The translations under genes were made by a program, and so were the position numbers. 46,145 nucleotides of DNA from the IMG/VR virus record IMGVR_UViG_3300042894_007218; one strand, written 5' to 3'. How positions within the stretch are numbered: position 1 is the first letter of the stretch; each line of letters begins with the position of its first letter. Of this stretch, positions 8,862 to 39,437 are shown piece after piece. The DNA comes from an uncultured virus (IMG/VR IMGVR_UViG_3300042894_007218). Taxonomy: Duplodnaviria; Heunggongvirae; Uroviricota; Caudoviricetes. The notes under the pieces are model-generated. The model saw only the letters and a list, made by a program, of their open reading frames with translations, was not told where the DNA came from and did no database searches.

Positions 8862-8933
8862 ATGAATAAATTAGCAACATATTATTACGAAGCCGAGGGT
8901 TTAAACCCAGTCGGACGAGTTTGTGTGTTGTAA
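8862..8933 (+). CDS. attenuator leader peptide 2 (MNKLATYYYEAEGLNPVGRVCVL)
   Basis: YYYEAE run precedes tRNA-Glu and tRNA-Tyr; antiterminator 8910-8924. Confidence 0.85.
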   Translation: MNKLATYYYEAEGLNPVGRVCVL

Positions 8934-8952
8934 CGATTTGATTACTTTAAAC

Positions 8953-8984
8953 AAACCCAGTCCGATTTTGGTCTGGGTTTTTTT
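8953..8984 (+). terminator. intrinsic terminator (attenuator 2)
   Basis: AAACCCAG..CCGA/TTGG..CTGGGTTT plus T-run. Confidence 0.85.
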
Positions 8985-9007
8985 ATTTTAAAAATATTTT
9001 AAAAAGA

Positions 9008-9039
9008 TTTGGTGTATTTGAAAAGTTACCTTATCTTTG
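9008..9039 (+). promoter_or_regulatory. Bacteroidota-type promoter between attenuator 2 and tRNA-Glu
   Basis: TTTG-N20-TATCTTTG. Confidence 0.7.
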
Positions 9040-9314: not shown

Positions 9315-9398
9315 ATGAAAAATTTAACTAACATAGGGGCAGTAATTATAGCGATAGGCGCGGGGCGTTTTATCGATAGACTGAGTTATGTTATGTAA
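9315..9398 (+). CDS. attenuator leader peptide 3 (MKNLTNIGAVIIAIGAGRFIDRLSYVM)
   Basis: ATA x3, GGG x2, GGC, GCA, GCG x2 precede Ile(TAT)/Ala/Gly tRNAs; antiterminator 9378-9387. Confidence 0.85.
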   Translation: MKNLTNIGAVIIAIGAGRFIDRLSYVM

Positions 9399-9419
9399 AT
9401 TTTGACTTTACATATATTT

Positions 9420-9451
9420 AAAACCCAGTCTCGAAAAGACTGGGTTTTTTT
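9420..9451 (+). terminator. intrinsic terminator (attenuator 3)
   Basis: AAAACCCAGTCT/AGACTGGGTTTT plus T-run. Confidence 0.9.
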
Positions 9452-9455
9452 ATTT

Positions 9456-9536
9456 CGGCAAGTACCGTTGGTGTCTTATACACACTATACACGTAGCGGG
9501 AAGTTGAAAACGTGGGTTCGAATCCCACCTTGCCGA
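9456..9536 (+). tRNA. atypical tRNA-Ile(TAT)-like RNA lacking a canonical D-arm
   Basis: Acceptor cggcaag/cttgccg; T-arm gtggg TTCGAAT cccac; gtgt CT TAT AC acac. Confidence 0.6.
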
Positions 9537-14093: not shown

Positions 14094-14125
14094 TTTGGTA
14101 GAACTGAAACTTTTATCTAATTTTG
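14094..14125 (+). promoter_or_regulatory. Bacteroidota-type promoter for leader 4
   Basis: TTTG-N20-TAATTTTG. Confidence 0.75.
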
Positions 14126-14183
14126 TATAAAATAATGACAAAAAATTAAAAAGAAAGATTTAACTTTCAATATATACAAAACA

Positions 14184-14300
14184 ATGAAAACGAATTTGAC
14201 AAATATGACGATGAACCTAACACTCAATGTGGTGAATATTACGTTATGTAATATTAGAACTTCTGAGGGTTCCTTCCTATTTAGTAAATTTGTCTTATAA
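14184..14300 (+). CDS. attenuator leader peptide 4 (MKTNLTNMTMNLTLNVVNITLCNIRTSEGSFLFSKFVL)
   Basis: Codons 3-26 are only T/N/L/M/V/I/C/R, matching the downstream tRNAs; antiterminator 14262-14272. Confidence 0.88.
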   Translation: MKTNLTNMTMNLTLNVVNITLCNIRTSEGSFLFSKFVL

Positions 14301-14328
14301 AGTGTAAATTTATAACTAAATATAAAAG

Positions 14329-14365
14329 AACCCTCGGATAGAAAAATCTGAGGGTTTTTTGTTTT
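14329..14365 (+). terminator. intrinsic terminator (attenuator 4)
   Basis: AACCCTCGGAT/ATCTGAGGGTT plus T-run. Confidence 0.9.
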
Positions 14366-14370
14366 ATACT

Positions 14371-14442
14371 GGAGTAGTAGCTTAATGGTGAAGCAATCGG
14401 CTGTTAACCGATAGATTACAGGTTCGAGTCCTGTCTACTCCG
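14371..14442 (+). tRNA. tRNA-Asn(GTT)
   Basis: atcgg CT GTT AA ccgat. Confidence 0.95.
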
Positions 14443-14448
14443 CTAAAT

Positions 14449-14521
14449 AGTCTCCTCGTTCAACTGGACAGGACATCGCTCTTCTAAAGCGAGGATATGG
14501 GTTCGAATCCCGTGGAGACTA
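14449..14521 (+). tRNA. tRNA-Arg(TCT)
   Basis: tcgct CT TCT AA agcga. Confidence 0.9.
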
Positions 14522-14527
14522 CTAATT

Positions 14528-14598
14528 ACTCTGATGGCGTAAAGGTAGCGTATCTCTTTTACATGGAGAAGGCAGTGGTTCGATACCACTTCGGAGTA
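14528..14598 (+). tRNA. tRNA-Val(TAC)
   Basis: tctct TT TAC AT ggaga. Confidence 0.9.
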
Positions 14599-14606
14599 CA
14601 AAAAAT

Positions 14607-14681
14607 TGGAATATAGCTCAGTTGGTTTAGAGCGCCGATCTGATACGTCGGAGGTCACTGGTTCGAGCCCAGTTATTCCAA
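14607..14681 (+). tRNA. tRNA-Ile(GAT)
   Basis: ccgat CT GAT AC gtcgg. Confidence 0.95.
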
Positions 14682-14688
14682 CAAACAG

Positions 14689-14771
14689 GCACCTGTGGTC
14701 GAGTGGAGTAGAAATACGGAAGGCACTGGATTGCAAACCCAGTCACGGGGGTTCAAGTCCCTCCAGGTGCT
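14689..14771 (+). tRNA. tRNA-Cys(GCA) with enlarged D-loop
   Basis: ctgga TT GCA AA cccag; U73. Confidence 0.85.
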
Positions 14772-14778
14772 CAAATAT

Positions 14779-14850
14779 GCTGATGTCGTATAATGGTCAT
14801 TACATTGCCTTTGTAACGCAAATATGTGGGTTCGACTCCCTCCATCAGCT
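14779..14850 (+). tRNA. tRNA-Thr(TGT)
   Basis: ttgcc TT TGT AA cgcaa. Confidence 0.85.
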
Positions 14851-14856
14851 CTAAAA

Positions 14857-14928
14857 TGTCTCGTAGTTTAATGGGAAAACGTTACCTTGACATGGTAAAG
14901 AGAGTGGGATCGTTACCCACCGAGACAA
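14857..14928 (+). tRNA. tRNA-Val(GAC)
   Basis: ttacc TT GAC AT ggtaa. Confidence 0.85.
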
Positions 14929-14953
14929 CAAAATAATGGATGGTGATTGAAAG

Positions 14954-15024
14954 AGTTACTTCGTTTAATGGAAAAACAATTGACTTCTAATCAATCTACA
15001 CTGGTTCGATTCCAGTAGTATATT
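14954..15024 (+). tRNA. tRNA-Arg(TCT)-like element with broken acceptor stem
   Basis: attga CT TCT AA tcaat; good D and T arms; only about 4 acceptor pairs. Confidence 0.55.
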
Positions 15025-15056
15025 ACTCTTCAAAGCTTTCCTCCGTTATTTTATTT

Positions 15057-15139
15057 GCCTTGGTGGTGAAATTGGTAGCACACGCCAGATTTAGGATCTG
15101 GTGCCGAAAGGCGTGAGAGTTCGAGTCTCTCTCAAGGTA
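15057..15139 (+). tRNA. tRNA-Leu(TAG)
   Basis: ccaga TT TAG GA tctgg; long variable arm. Confidence 0.95.
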
Positions 15140-15145
15140 CAAAAT

Positions 15146-15231
15146 GCTCCTGTGGCGAAATTGGCAGCACGCGTTGGACTTAAAATCCAATGGTCATAGT
15201 GACCGTGCCGGTTCGAGTCCGGCCAGGAGTA
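15146..15231 (+). tRNA. tRNA-Leu(TAA)
   Basis: ttgga CT TAA AA tccaa; long variable arm. Confidence 0.95.
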
Positions 15232-15265
15232 CAAAATTAATATATAATCAAAAAAGAAAAGTATT

Positions 15266-15592
15266 ATGACTATAGAAATTACAGATCAAAACTTTAATGA
15301 AATGATTAAAAGCTCAGATAAATTGATTTTAGTAGACTTTTGGGCATCTTGGTGTAATCCATGTAAAGCTTTAGCTCCTGCTTTAGAAGATGCTTCAAAT
15401 GATTTAGAAGAAAAAATTGTTGTTTATAAAATAAATATTGATGAAAATCCGGATTCTCCTCAGAGATATGGTGTTAGAGGAATACCTACTATTTTATTCT
15501 TTAAATCAGGTGAAGTAGTAGATAGACAAGTAGGAGTTTTATCAAAATCAAAACTCTATGAAAAAATAGAAAGTGTTTTTTTTAGTCATTAA
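15266..15592 (+). CDS. trxA: thioredoxin
   Basis: VDFWASWCNPCK, GIPT motifs. Confidence 0.95.
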   Translation: MTIEITDQNFNEMIKSSDKLILVDFWASWCNPCKALAPALEDASNDLEEKIVVYKINIDENPDSPQRYGVRGIPTILFFKSGEVVDRQVGVLSKSKLYEKIESVFFSH

Positions 15593-15598
15593 ACAAAA

Positions 15599-15668
15599 AC
15601 CGTGGCTTAGTGGAAAAGAATCTACTCTCATAAGGTGGGTTAAGTGAGTTCGAACCTCATACACGGTA
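15599..15668 (+). tRNA. tRNA(CAT), elongator Met-like, compact/atypical
   Basis: accgtg/cacggt acceptor; ctact CT CAT AA ggtgg; gtgag TTCGAAC ctcat. Confidence 0.6.
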
Positions 15669-16238
15669 CTATCTTAGTATTGTAACGTGACCGGTTATTA
15701 GTTTTTTTCCATCATCGTCAATCATATCTAATTTCATTATCCAAGAATATGTTCCATCCGGAACTAAAACGCCATTGTATGTACCATCCCATTTTGAATT
15801 AACATCATGTGATTGCCATATAATTGCACCCCATCTATTGTATATTGTTAATTCAAAATTATCAGTAGATATACCACTTGTTAATACCGGTCCCCACATT
15901 TGATTGAATTCATTTCCATCTGGTGTAAATGAATTAGGAACCCAAAATATTAACGGATCACATTGAGTTACAATAACGTCTAAGACTTGTGGATTTCCAG
16001 GACATCCTATATCATTATAACCAATTGCAACTATTTGATATTCTCCTGGTTCATCATAAGTAATACTAATATCTAATCCATTACCAATTTGAGAACCATT
16101 TAGAAACCATGTTACAGTACCATTTACATCAATGGTTGTTGTATATGTAAAAGTGTTTGGTTCTTCACATATCTCAAACTCCTGTTGAGCATGGTATCTA
16201 AATGTTAATAGTAAAAATAATATTAATATAACTCTCAT
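15669..16238 (-). CDS. secreted protein with T9SS type B (gliding-motility-associated) C-terminal domain
   Basis: Signal peptide; VPNSFTPDGN..., IYNRWG, WDGTYNG, DGTY motifs. Confidence 0.9.
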   Translation of the reverse strand: MRVILILFLLLTFRYHAQQEFEICEEPNTFTYTTTIDVNGTVTWFLNGSQIGNGLDISITYDEPGEYQIVAIGYNDIGCPGNPQVLDVIVTQCDPLIFWVPNSFTPDGNEFNQMWGPVLTSGISTDNFELTIYNRWGAIIWQSHDVNSKWDGTYNGVLVPDGTYSWIMKLDMIDDDGKKLITGHVTILR

Positions 16239-16239
16239 C

Positions 16240-16806
16240 TTAATTATGTTGTATTGGTGTTAATGTTGGTTGTGGAGAAACTCCTGTATTTGAAGTTGCT
16301 GTAAAAGTACATCCTCCATTTGTATAAGTGTATGTAATAGTTGATGCCCCTGGTCCTGCTGTTTGTGGACAGAATTGGCCATTAACTACTCCATTTCCTG
16401 ACCAAACACCACCAGCTGGTAATCCAGATAACGCAACACACGGATCTGTTACACAGAAAGGTCCAATCGGTGTGATTGATGGAGCGACTTGATAAATAAG
16501 AACATTTAAGTTTACTGCTGGTGATGGACAACCAGCCTGTGAAGTGTAAATAACACTAACTGCATTATTAATTAATCCCGGAGGACAGTTTGACCAGTTG
16601 ACTTGAATTGAGTTTGTGCCCTGTCCTGATGTAATTGTTGCACAAGCAGGAACTGTCCAAGTATAAGTTCCAGCGCCAATTGAAGTTACTTGATACTGAG
16701 AAAGAGATTGTGACTGATAACAAACAGTGTCTGGATTTGTAGTCACAAGCTGACCAAATACAGCCGTGTTTAAGAGAATAAAGAATAATAAAAACAGTTT
16801 TTTCAT
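16240..16806 (-). CDS. secreted PKD/Ig-like domain protein
   Basis: Signal peptide; YTWTV...GQGTNSIQVNW; ends PIQHN. Confidence 0.8.
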   Translation of the reverse strand: MKKLFLLFFILLNTAVFGQLVTTNPDTVCYQSQSLSQYQVTSIGAGTYTWTVPACATITSGQGTNSIQVNWSNCPPGLINNAVSVIYTSQAGCPSPAVNLNVLIYQVAPSITPIGPFCVTDPCVALSGLPAGGVWSGNGVVNGQFCPQTAGPGASTITYTYTNGGCTFTATSNTGVSPQPTLTPIQHN

Positions 16807-26981: not shown

Positions 26982-27074
26982 ATGAAAAACGTAATTGTAA
27001 ATATCGTAGTAAATCAACAACCGCAGGATCAGGATCCAGTCGGAGTGACTAACTATGTTTTTACATTGAGTTAA
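26982..27074 (+). CDS. attenuator leader peptide 5 (MKNVIVNIVVNQQPQDQDPVGVTNYVFTLS)
   Basis: QQPQDQDP run precedes Asp/Pro/Gln tRNAs; antiterminator 27046-27054. Confidence 0.88.
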   Translation: MKNVIVNIVVNQQPQDQDPVGVTNYVFTLS

Positions 27075-27094
27075 GATATTAACAAATAAATTGT

Positions 27095-27129
27095 AAACCC
27101 GGTTAGTCAAAAACTAATCGGGTTTTTTT
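27095..27129 (+). terminator. intrinsic terminator (attenuator 5)
   Basis: AAACCCGGTTAGT/ACTAATCGGGTTT plus T7. Confidence 0.9.
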
Positions 27130-27136
27130 GTTTTTA

Positions 27137-36916: not shown

Positions 36917-37215
36917 TTTGGTGGATTTGAAATATTGCCTTATCTTTGTATTAACAAACGATGGGGAAGTTCCAGAGCGGCAAATGGAGTTACGTTGTAA
37001 CGTGACTGGTCTCAATAGATCTTCGTAGGTTCGAGTCCTAACCTTTCCCACAAAAAGATTTGGTAGATTGAAAAATTTTACTTATCTTTGTAAAACAAAT
37101 CAGAAACGTCTGATATAATTAAAAGTTCTTTGAAAAACGGTTTAGTACTAAACAAACTAAACCAAAAAAAAAGTAAAAAAAGATTTGGTCGAAATAAAAA
37201 AAGTTCATATCTTTG
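36917..37215 (+). promoter_or_regulatory. three tandem Bacteroidota-type promoters (36917-36948, 37059-37090, 37184-37215)
   Basis: TTTGG-start, N20 spacer, TATCTTTG in all three. Confidence 0.8.
36963..37050 (+). tRNA. tRNA-Tyr(GTA)-like with irregular anticodon loop
   Basis: Tyr-type D-arm and variable arm; gttacg TTGTAA cgtgac (6-nt loop). Confidence 0.6.
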
Positions 37216-37253: not shown

Positions 37254-37326
37254 CGCGGGATAGAGCAGTCGGTAGCTCGCAAGGCTCATAACCTTGAGGT
37301 CGTTGGTTCGAGTCCAGCTCCCGCTA
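37254..37326 (+). tRNA. tRNA-fMet(CAT), second type
   Basis: caagg CT CAT AA ccttg; C1:U72 mismatch. Confidence 0.9.
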
Positions 37327-37374
37327 CAAAAGAGTTCTCAACGGAGAACATCGTTCTTTGAAATATTGTCTTTA

Positions 37375-38205
37375 ACAGTCGGTTTCGGCTGACTGTGAAA
37401 AGAAGGGCGGCTTATAGTCCTTAAAATAAACCGTGAAAGCGGGATAAAGTGAACAGAATAGCTAAATCTGTTTGCGTCTTGAACCCTCGGGTTTGAGGTC
37501 GAGTAAGCAAGTGGGATACCACAACTCCTTATTAATCGAGGGTAACACTGTAGATGAAATGGATTTGTGACCAGGCAATTGTAGATTGTTTGGTTGACTT
37601 CGGAAGAAGAATAGGAATAACCCATAGGTCTGTTGCGAGAAGTGTTGACTCACCGGTCTTCATCATTGCGGAGCCCAACTTAAGAGGTGTCTTAAAGTCG
37701 AAAGACAATCAGGTGTACGGGTGGTGCTGTTACTTGACACTCTTCTCTCTACCAGGAGAGTTGTTGTGGAGATATCTTAAAGAGTTGTGATGGAGGCATC
37801 ACACGGAGTAGTTCAGTATTCTTGAGGTCAAAAGCTTTGAGAGCTGAGAGGTAACCACTACTTCGACAAATCTACAAAGCACTAAATTTCACTATTAATG
37901 AAACATTTAAAAAGGAAATCGAAAGTGTTACCTAGTTACTGATGAAAGGTACCTACCCAGTCGTGAGTGTTCACGGCCACTGATGCTCGAAAGGCTGATG
38001 TGATTTCATCGAAAAGCTTATAGAGGGTCGAACCTCGAGTCAGCTCGCAAGGTTGAGTAAGTGGATTAAATGGAGAGTAATTAGTAACTTAAGGAGTGGT
38101 TAGTCTAACTAACCGGTACTGACAGAGTACTTCTCAAAAGGAAGTGGATAAGAAGGGAAACCATAATCTAACAAAAGTTCTGTCGTCAAAGGCGTAATCT
38201 CAGCC
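37375..38205 (+). ncRNA. large structured RNA, probably GOLLD
   Basis: About 830 nt, GC-richer, no credible ORF, many GNRA/UUCG-capped hairpins, flanked by tRNAs, ends in hairpin plus T-run. Confidence 0.65.
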
Positions 38206-38258
38206 TTTTTTGGTCGGTTCATAGGAACCTCTGAGAGCGAGACTCAGACCGACCTCAA

Positions 38259-39272: not shown

Positions 39273-39376
39273 GGTCCTTTAGCTCAGCAGGTTAGAGCAA
39301 CTGACTCTAAGTGTTATAAGTAAATTAACACAACAATATAATCAGTAGGTCCACGGTTCGAGCCCGTGAGGGACCA
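39273..39376 (+). tRNA. tRNA-Ile2-like gene interrupted by a 30-nt insertion in the anticodon loop
   Basis: Ile2-type body ggtccttTAGCTCAG...; actga CTC[30 nt]ATAA tcagt. Confidence 0.75.
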
Positions 39377-39437
39377 CTAAAACAAAAACTCATCAAATTA
39401 TTTGGTGAGTTTTTTTATTTTAATTATATTTGCTATT

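Follow-up and report, generated by a model that had tools for sequence, protein, structure and literature searches.

Organisation of the locus

The DNA analysed here, referred to below as the window, is a stretch of 46,145 nucleotides (nt) from an uncultured virus of the Caudoviricetes (IMG/VR record IMGVR_UViG_3300042894_007218). It is AT-rich and carries 23 tRNA genes (ARAGORN, default settings) together with a GOLLD RNA. Between positions 14184 and 15668, a short open reading frame (ORF) is followed by an intrinsic terminator, an array of tRNA genes, a thioredoxin gene and a tRNA-like gene with a CAT anticodon. The initial annotation had read this unit as an attenuator, in which a leader peptide sensing eight amino acids would gate the tRNA operon. 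The features of the locus, all on the plus strand, are the following:

14094..14125, plus strand: promoter-like site of the Bacteroidota type, matching the pattern TTTG, spacer, TAnnTTTG
14184..14300, plus strand: leader ORF of 38 codons, MKTNLTNMTMNLTLNVVNITLCNIRTSEGSFLFSKFVL, with ATG at 14184 and TAA at 14298-14300
14190..14261, plus strand: sensor run of 24 codons (codons 3-26), using only T/N/L/M/V/I/C/R
14213..14226, plus strand: region 1, possible anti-antiterminator strand (GAACC..CTCA), with 5+4 pairs to region 2 around an internal loop
14235..14255, plus strand: 8-bp hairpin in the sensor, AAUAUUAC/GUAAUAUU, -5.2 kcal/mol, a possible pause hairpin
14262..14272, plus strand: region 2, 5' strand of the putative antiterminator, within the ORF (codons 27-30)
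14278..14322, plus strand: spacer hairpin, which extends the antiterminator to one long hairpin (14258-14342)
14325..14360, plus strand: predicted intrinsic terminator, found by a terminator scan, with 15 pairs and a loop of 6, then a T-run
14371..15232, plus strand: tRNA array, with nine called genes (ARAGORN) and a Cys-like GCA element
14689..14772, plus strand: the Cys-like GCA element, 84 nt, with a GCA anticodon loop, U73 and an enlarged, non-canonical D arm
15266..15592, plus strand: thioredoxin gene (trx), PF00085, E 3.9e-33
15599..15668, plus strand: tRNA-like gene with a CAT anticodon, 70 nt, Rfam tRNA score 24.5 bits (gathering score 29)

The short ORF sits between the promoter-like site (14094-14125) and the first tRNA gene (14371), as a leader attenuator would, and the promoter motif is likewise found upstream of orthologous leaders. 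The array, the largest tRNA block here, comprises in order Asn GTT, Arg TCT, Val TAC, Ile GAT, the Cys-like GCA element, Thr TGT, Val GAC, Arg TCT, Leu TAG and Leu TAA. The tRNA-Asn gene starts 10 nt after the T-run of the leader terminator, and there is therefore no room for a promoter between the two.

A leader run restricted to eight amino acids

Codons 3 to 26 of the leader read TNLTNMTMNLTLNVVNITLCNIRT, and all 24 belong to the set T/N/L/M/V/I/C/R, exactly as the initial annotation had claimed for 24 consecutive codons. No other maximal run of at least 24 such residues occurs when the window is translated in all six frames. In its long ORFs, a fraction of 0.422 of all residues belongs to the eight amino acids, giving a chance of 0.422^24, or about 1e-9 per position, for a run of this length. 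The Arg codon of the sensor is AGA (14256-14258) and Arg TCT genes are called downstream, so that the match between the two, also noticed at the outset, holds. Under standard wobble rules, the array has a cognate anticodon for 22 of the 24 sensor codons, while CTC and ACT need four-way reading by U34. Folding places the start region of the leader in a mostly unpaired state (0.76 vs. 0.50 overall).

Concerning synonymous codon choice, rare synonyms fill eight of the 24 sensor positions (ACG three times, GTG twice, CTC, TTG and CTA). Within the codons of their own amino acid, these account in the phage genome for 4% (ACG), 5% (GTG), 2% (CTC), 9% (TTG) and 11% (CTA). As for the orthologous sensors described below, CTA, CTG and CTC together represent 56 of 90 Leu codons, vs. 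15% in long ORFs. The preference for rare codons may raise the sensitivity of the sensor or serve the fold of the RNA.

Two competing RNA helices

Downstream of the sensor run, the leader RNA can adopt either of two helices. Of the two arms of the terminator, the 5' one contains region 3 (14328-14338) and the 3' one corresponds to region 4 (14346-14357). Region 3, GAACCCTCGGA, also pairs with region 2, TCTGAGGGTTC (14262-14272), over 11 positions, i.e. 10 Watson-Crick pairs and one G.U. The 11-bp pairing proposed from the first inspection of the DNA was thereby recovered, and no partner as good occurred in 500 dinucleotide shuffles of the upstream sequence. Fold energies were -26.6 kcal/mol for the long antiterminator, -19.5 kcal/mol for the terminator and -13.7 kcal/mol for the segment holding the 1:2 pairing (14205-14276). 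As a whole, the leader (14184-14364) has a minimum free energy of -44.2 kcal/mol (z = -4.18), a value reached by none of 200 shuffles.

Conservation and covariation among orthologous units

Relatives of the unit were collected with a 25-nt leader motif, which gave 7 IMG/VR contigs (55 to 508 kb), and with a 20-nt version of it, which gave 75 metagenome loci. Together with the window and two GenBank records, these motif loci make up 85 units, 73 of them with a complete ORF; 44 distinct peptides and 64 distinct DNA versions are present among the recovered units. Several of the loci are one contig filed in two collections, and the orthologues are related rather than independent.

Over the 44 distinct peptides, and with seven search-forced residues excluded, 664 of 684 sensor residues fall within the eight-letter set. 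The 20 misses consist of 15 Pro, found at the boundary with region 2, two Ala, two Lys and one His. The order of residues in the N-terminal half varies by lineage (TNLTNMTMNLTLN, TMNLNMNMNTLT, TLTVNMNLNNTMTT and TINLNMNLNNTLNM) and the composition is constant, as expected of selection on codon membership and not on the peptide. On the side of the arrays, taken as contiguous in the 74 loci with downstream DNA, 644 of 650 tRNAs belong to the same set, the others being five with undetermined anticodons and one Lys. No change was seen in the 8-bp hairpin at 14235-14255 among the first 10 orthologues; the later loci were found with a search pattern that included it, and its conservation in them is forced.

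In four loci (L005, L015, L040 and L053), ARAGORN reports four-letter anticodons (acat, gggt, gtat and gttt) late in the arrays. These tRNAs come directly after a Leu(TAA or TAG) gene, and the calls may represent misfolds or tRNAs with eight-membered anticodon loops.

The competing helices are retained as well. In all 64 DNA versions, the best partner of the terminator 5' arm lies inside the ORF just past the sensor run. The switching helix occurs in three versions: AACCCTCAGA with TCTGAGGGTT in most loci, AACCCAGATTC with GAATCTGGGTT in L006, and AACCCGAAC with GTTCGGGTT in L022, L016, L074 and others. In each of the three, regions 2, 3 and 4 changed together. Seventeen of the 64 versions were aligned to count covariation, L074 being partly misaligned, with the following result:

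Terminator (3:4): pairing in 96.4% of cells; both sides changed in 5 pairs and 13 cells
Antiterminator (2:3): pairing in 91.5% of cells; both sides changed in 5 pairs and 15 cells

None of 500 shuffles reached the covariation score of either helix, and the score was lower in all slid controls.

Distal genes and probable extent of the transcript

The Cys-like GCA element lies between the Ile and Thr genes of the array; Rfam makes no call for it, and the reading that ARAGORN gives at a lowered threshold is wrong. It is kept in nine loci, and L007 and L008 have a canonical tRNA-Cys(GCA) in its place. The second Arg(TCT) gene is found at 14953-15026. Its region (14930-15056) has conserved flanks, with orthologous elements in L001 (2805-2912) and L002 (2896-3009). 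Judged by eye only, the anticodon loop of these elements reads TAA in L001 and CAA in L002, which suggests that the element may have switched anticodons within the eight-letter set.

Past the array, trx begins 33 nt after the last tRNA-Leu gene, and the CAT tRNA-like gene begins 6 nt after the trx stop codon. The thioredoxin gene that the initial annotation had placed before the CAT tRNA is borne out by the match of ORF 15266-15592 to PF00085. The same annotation had predicted a Met tRNA from the internal Met codons of the leader. Internal ATG codons are present in all 44 distinct orthologous leaders, and a CAT tRNA occurs in relatives (L002, L003, L005 and L007) with its cloverleaf kept via compensatory changes in the acceptor, anticodon and T stems, the L005 copy being called tRNA-Met by ARAGORN. 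The prediction thus fits, and the element at 15599 is real as far as its conserved cloverleaf goes, though its score is low, as discussed below. The order trx, CAT tRNA is also that of L007, while in L002 and L003 the CAT gene is within the array. The CAT tRNA is a candidate for either of two identities, Met or the lysidine-type Ile (Ile2).

On the plus strand from 14125 to 15668, no promoter motif was found, and no terminator was predicted beyond that at 14325-14360; the next gene is convergent. For these reasons, trx and the CAT tRNA are likely to be co-transcribed with the array.

Other leader units in the window

Four more units, each with a short ORF and a terminator, precede tRNA clusters in the window, at 821-985, 8862-8985, 9315-9452 and 26982-27130. 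Numbered along the window, with the unit described above as unit 4, they are:

Unit 1, ORF 821-922: ...HKHFSKSSKWFSHS...; tRNAs Phe, Lys, His, Trp (at low threshold only), Arg ACG and Ser
Unit 2, ORF 8862-8933: ...YYYEAE...; tRNAs Glu and Tyr
Unit 3, ORF 9315-9398: ...IGAVIIAIGAG..., with three ATA codons; an Ile(TAT)-like gene, Ala and Gly
Unit 5, ORF 26982-27074: ...QQPQDQDP...; tRNAs Asp, Pro and Gln

In a 5 by 5 matrix of leaders and clusters, every leader scored best with its own cluster, the true assignment ranking first of 120 with both strict and loose tRNA sets. By duplex energy, the 2:3 partner of unit 1 is clearly non-random, only one of 500 shuffles being as good. The terminator of the L016 and L022 lineage (AACCCGAAC...GTTCGGGTT) is nearly identical to that of unit 1 (948-975), with region 2 changed to match, which suggests that switch modules may have been exchanged between units.

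Ribosome position and proposed mechanism

The decision between the two helices was modelled on a transcript truncated just before region 4, with a ribosome footprint that covers 15 nt before and 11 nt after the first base of the A-site codon. In this model, formation of the 2:3 helix would depend on the position of the ribosome. Without a ribosome, the probability of the 2:3 pairing, P(2:3), is 0.99. It is likewise 0.99 with codons 2-23 in the A site, then 0.72 at codon 24, 0.45 at codon 25 (AGA), 0.04 at codon 26 and 0.00 at codons 27-33. Equilibrium folding of the full-length RNA with a masked ribosome was also tried as a decision model; it did not reproduce the expected switch, and the truncated transcript was preferred.

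The codon-restricted ORF, the two mutually exclusive helices with the covariation of both, and the match of the sensor to the tRNA set encoded downstream, here and in the orthologous arrays, are observed, and they support the original reading of a leader-peptide attenuator. We consider it highly probable that the unit is a working ribosome-mediated transcription attenuator gating a phage tRNA operon. From the arrangement of the sequence we infer that the ORF is translated, that its translation is coupled to transcription, that slow decoding is what opens the switch, and that the transcript runs to the CAT tRNA.

In the proposed mechanism, transcription would begin at the promoter-like site (14094-14125) and a ribosome would translate the 38-codon leader, where, after Met-Lys, the first 24 sense codons would be read almost wholly by tRNAs encoded downstream. 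If decoding were slow, the ribosome would lag within 14190-14250, leaving region 2 free to pair with region 3 once the latter is made. The long antiterminator would then form, and RNA polymerase would continue into the tRNA genes and probably through trx and the CAT tRNA. If decoding were fast, region 2 and the spacer hairpin would be covered by the ribosome at the time when regions 3 and 4 are being transcribed, and the 15-bp terminator would form, ending the transcript 10 nt short of tRNA-Asn. As the tRNA output would relieve the slow-decoding signal, the unit would act as a negative-feedback control of supply for eight amino acids at once.

A wider proposal takes the five units together as a modular, demand-driven tRNA supply, in which codon-matched attenuators, each opened only by slow decoding of its own codons, would sense the loss of host tRNAs, whether caused by anticodon nucleases of the host or by a shutdown of the host that the phage drives, and supply just those species that are missing, as an inducible counter-defence with the ribosome as its sensor. 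We put it forward tentatively, as a possibility on the doubtful side.

Evidence to the contrary and alternative explanations

A number of observations weigh against the attenuator reading or limit it. At the level of codons, the sensor has no GTC or GTT codon for tRNA-Val(GAC), and the array of L040 includes a Lys tRNA for which its sensor has no Lys codon. A ribosome stalled at the Arg AGA codon (0.45) or at the last Thr codon (0.04) would mask region 2 partly or fully. The full-length RNA at equilibrium favours the terminator for most modelled stalls, P(3:4) being 0.47-0.97 at codons 6-21; the model therefore depends on kinetics, with 2:3 forming before region 4 is made. Coupling of transcription and translation in Bacteroidota is likewise an assumption of the model, taken from general knowledge. 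The compensatory events amount to about three independent ones, and not fifteen, since the sequences share ancestry and many loci duplicate one another. None of the 20 sequencing runs listed as containing the stretch is an RNA run; all are DNA metagenomes, mostly of lake water.

The alternative pairing of region 2 with 14213-14226, the other helix of the initial annotation, fared less well than 2:3. It exists as 5+4 pairs and is close to chance expectation in the window, where 24 of 500 shuffles are equally good. In the divergent orthologues L002-L006 it is not conserved, and between 10 and 422 of 500 shuffles of the orthologues do as well (422/500 for L006). A 1:2 pairing so weak and unconserved is a doubtful candidate for what would block 2:3 after the passage of a fast ribosome. 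The CAT tRNA-like gene, for its part, is below the Rfam threshold (24.5 vs. 29 bits) and has no ARAGORN call at default settings.

Among the other units, 2, 3 and 5 have no clear 2:3 partner by duplex energy (46, 86 and 113 of 500 shuffles, respectively, being as good). A promoter-like site at 9008-9039 lies between the unit 2 terminator and the Glu and Tyr tRNAs; unit 2 therefore cannot be the only gate, and these tRNAs are probably also made independently of its attenuator. Leader 5, finally, also opens with N, V and I codons, which belong to cluster 4.

The alternative that survives best is that the attenuator mainly gauges translation speed or the supply of amino acids in general, for instance as a timer of the infection stage, and is not a specific sensor of eight tRNAs. 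For a stalled ribosome, shortage of tRNA and shortage of amino acid are indistinguishable, the eight amino acids make a broad probe (42% of residues), and with eight of the 24 sensor codons rare in the genome, basal decoding may be slow already. A general gauge would not need the matching seen in five units, each having a different set that fits its own tRNAs, nor does it account for a set retained in 664 of 684 orthologous residues, and we regard it as unlikely.

Far less probable is a post-transcriptional role of the hairpins, in the processing or stability of the tRNA precursor, or a constitutive partial terminator, with the ORF untranslated or irrelevant. Hairpins flanking tRNAs commonly take part in precursor processing, the leader ORF is known from sequence alone, and the 1:2 helix is weak. 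The reading frame and its eight-letter composition are nevertheless conserved despite sequence variation, a 24-codon run has a chance of about 1e-9, region 2 is inside the ORF and covaries with region 3, and four paralogous units repeat the pattern, each with another amino-acid set.

An inverted logic, whereby a stall in the leader would cause termination and fast translation read-through, so that tRNAs are made when decoding is good, draws on the high terminator probability given by full-length equilibrium folding at most modelled stalls, and is hardly credible against a P(2:3) of 0.99 for codons 2-23 in the truncated transcript, falling to 0.04 or less only with the ribosome on region 2 (codons 26-33), a stop codon 27 nt upstream of region 3, from where a terminating ribosome cannot melt the terminator, and a positive feedback on tRNA supply that has no evident use.

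The source phage and other RNA genes of the window

The nearest deposited phage DNA is that of LR745206.1 (634,780 bp) and LR756502.1 (642,428 bp), both uncultured phage genomes. The pattern TTTG-spacer-TAnnTTTG, which we take to be the Bacteroidota promoter consensus, has 17 matches in the window vs. 3.9 expected, a number reached in none of 100 shuffles. The two convergent ORFs that follow the unit on the minus strand (15669-16238 and 16240-16806) encode a CHU_C type IX secretion signal domain and a PKD-like domain, which hints at a Bacteroidota host. Given the promoter pattern, the CHU_C domain, the lake-water runs and the matches to large-phage DNA, the source is most likely a very large phage of a Bacteroidota host living in fresh water.

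Taken together, the window would have tRNAs for all 20 amino acids, 18 of them by ARAGORN at default settings, Trp at a lowered threshold only, and Cys only as the non-canonical GCA element. Non-canonical tRNA-like genes were found at 1233-1304, 1488-1569, 9456-9536 and 14689-14772. This set consists of a Trp CCA gene (lowered threshold only), a GCT element for which the tRNA-Sec model scores best, a TAT element whose extra arm is long, and the GCA element with its enlarged D arm.

The GOLLD RNA (37804-38206, 285.7 bits) stands amid separately promoted tRNA-like genes (36963-37049 and 37254-37327), which have promoter motifs and no leader ORF. To a further, well-scoring tRNA at 39273-39377 (Rfam 56.7 bits), ARAGORN assigns a CTA anticodon, of the amber suppressor type, and a 30-nt insertion after position 37; this tRNA could bear on the use of stop codons by the phage.

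Comparison with known systems and significance

Leader-peptide attenuation is the textbook means by which bacteria match amino-acid synthesis to demand, and multivalent leaders are known in enterobacteria, namely those of ilvGMEDA (Ile/Leu/Val), thr (Thr/Ile) and ilvBN (Val/Leu). With these the phage unit, as read here, shares a translated leader rich in regulatory codons, an intrinsic terminator, an antiterminator 5' strand at the end of the ORF, and several amino acids per leader. It differs from them in that tRNA genes would be regulated instead of biosynthetic enzymes, the product acting directly on the signal, and in valency, with eight amino acids vs. two or three. It also has no sequence relation to them, a weak 1:2 helix and, probably, a Bacteroidota phage setting. 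At the gathering score or at E up to 5, none of the Rfam leader families (Thr, His, Leu, Trp and the like) matched the window, nor did the T-box model at E up to 5.

T-boxes resemble the proposed phage switch in that a terminator/antiterminator switch reports on a specific tRNA pool and controls translation-related genes. They differ in binding uncharged tRNA directly and without a ribosome, whereas the phage unit would use the ribosome as sensor, and for many tRNAs at once. A Phe-rich leader considered as a precedent at E. coli pheU and pheV was dropped after inspection of about 105 to 125 nt upstream of each gene (strain MG1655), where no Phe-rich ORF is present.

In E. coli, a leader peptide (pheM) precedes the synthetase genes pheST. 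A His leader has been described upstream of hisS paralogues in bacilli (PMC2965389). The passages of that paper on this leader mention neither tRNA genes nor Bacteroidota. Both cases share with the mechanism proposed for the phage unit a ribosome-mediated attenuation that acts on a component of decoding and responds to the supply of the matching charged tRNA. Such leaders serve one synthetase and one amino acid, whereas the phage unit would serve the tRNA genes themselves, for eight amino acids.

As for phage tRNAs in general, according to the abstract of PMC10264068 they replace host tRNAs hit by tRNA-targeting defences, and changes in their anticodon loops evade nucleases. The likeness to the present case lies in the tRNA arrays of large phages and in a benefit set by the state of the host tRNA pool; that abstract makes no mention of a sensor for switching on the array. 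The relevant passages of PMC3082878 mention a tRNA operon in another context only. No account of leader-peptide control of tRNA genes was found in the literature searched, most subscription journals being outside its scope, and an older description is possible. What is new here is the target, i.e. tRNA genes, and the valency, with eight amino acids in one leader.

If the attenuator reading is true, the virus would gauge decoding capacity via the ribosome and replenish just those tRNA species in short supply, which would explain how phages with dozens of tRNAs avoid needless tRNA synthesis. The leader would then be a natural eight-input sensor of tRNA availability, and the attenuator a direct way to address the long-standing question of why phages carry tRNAs.

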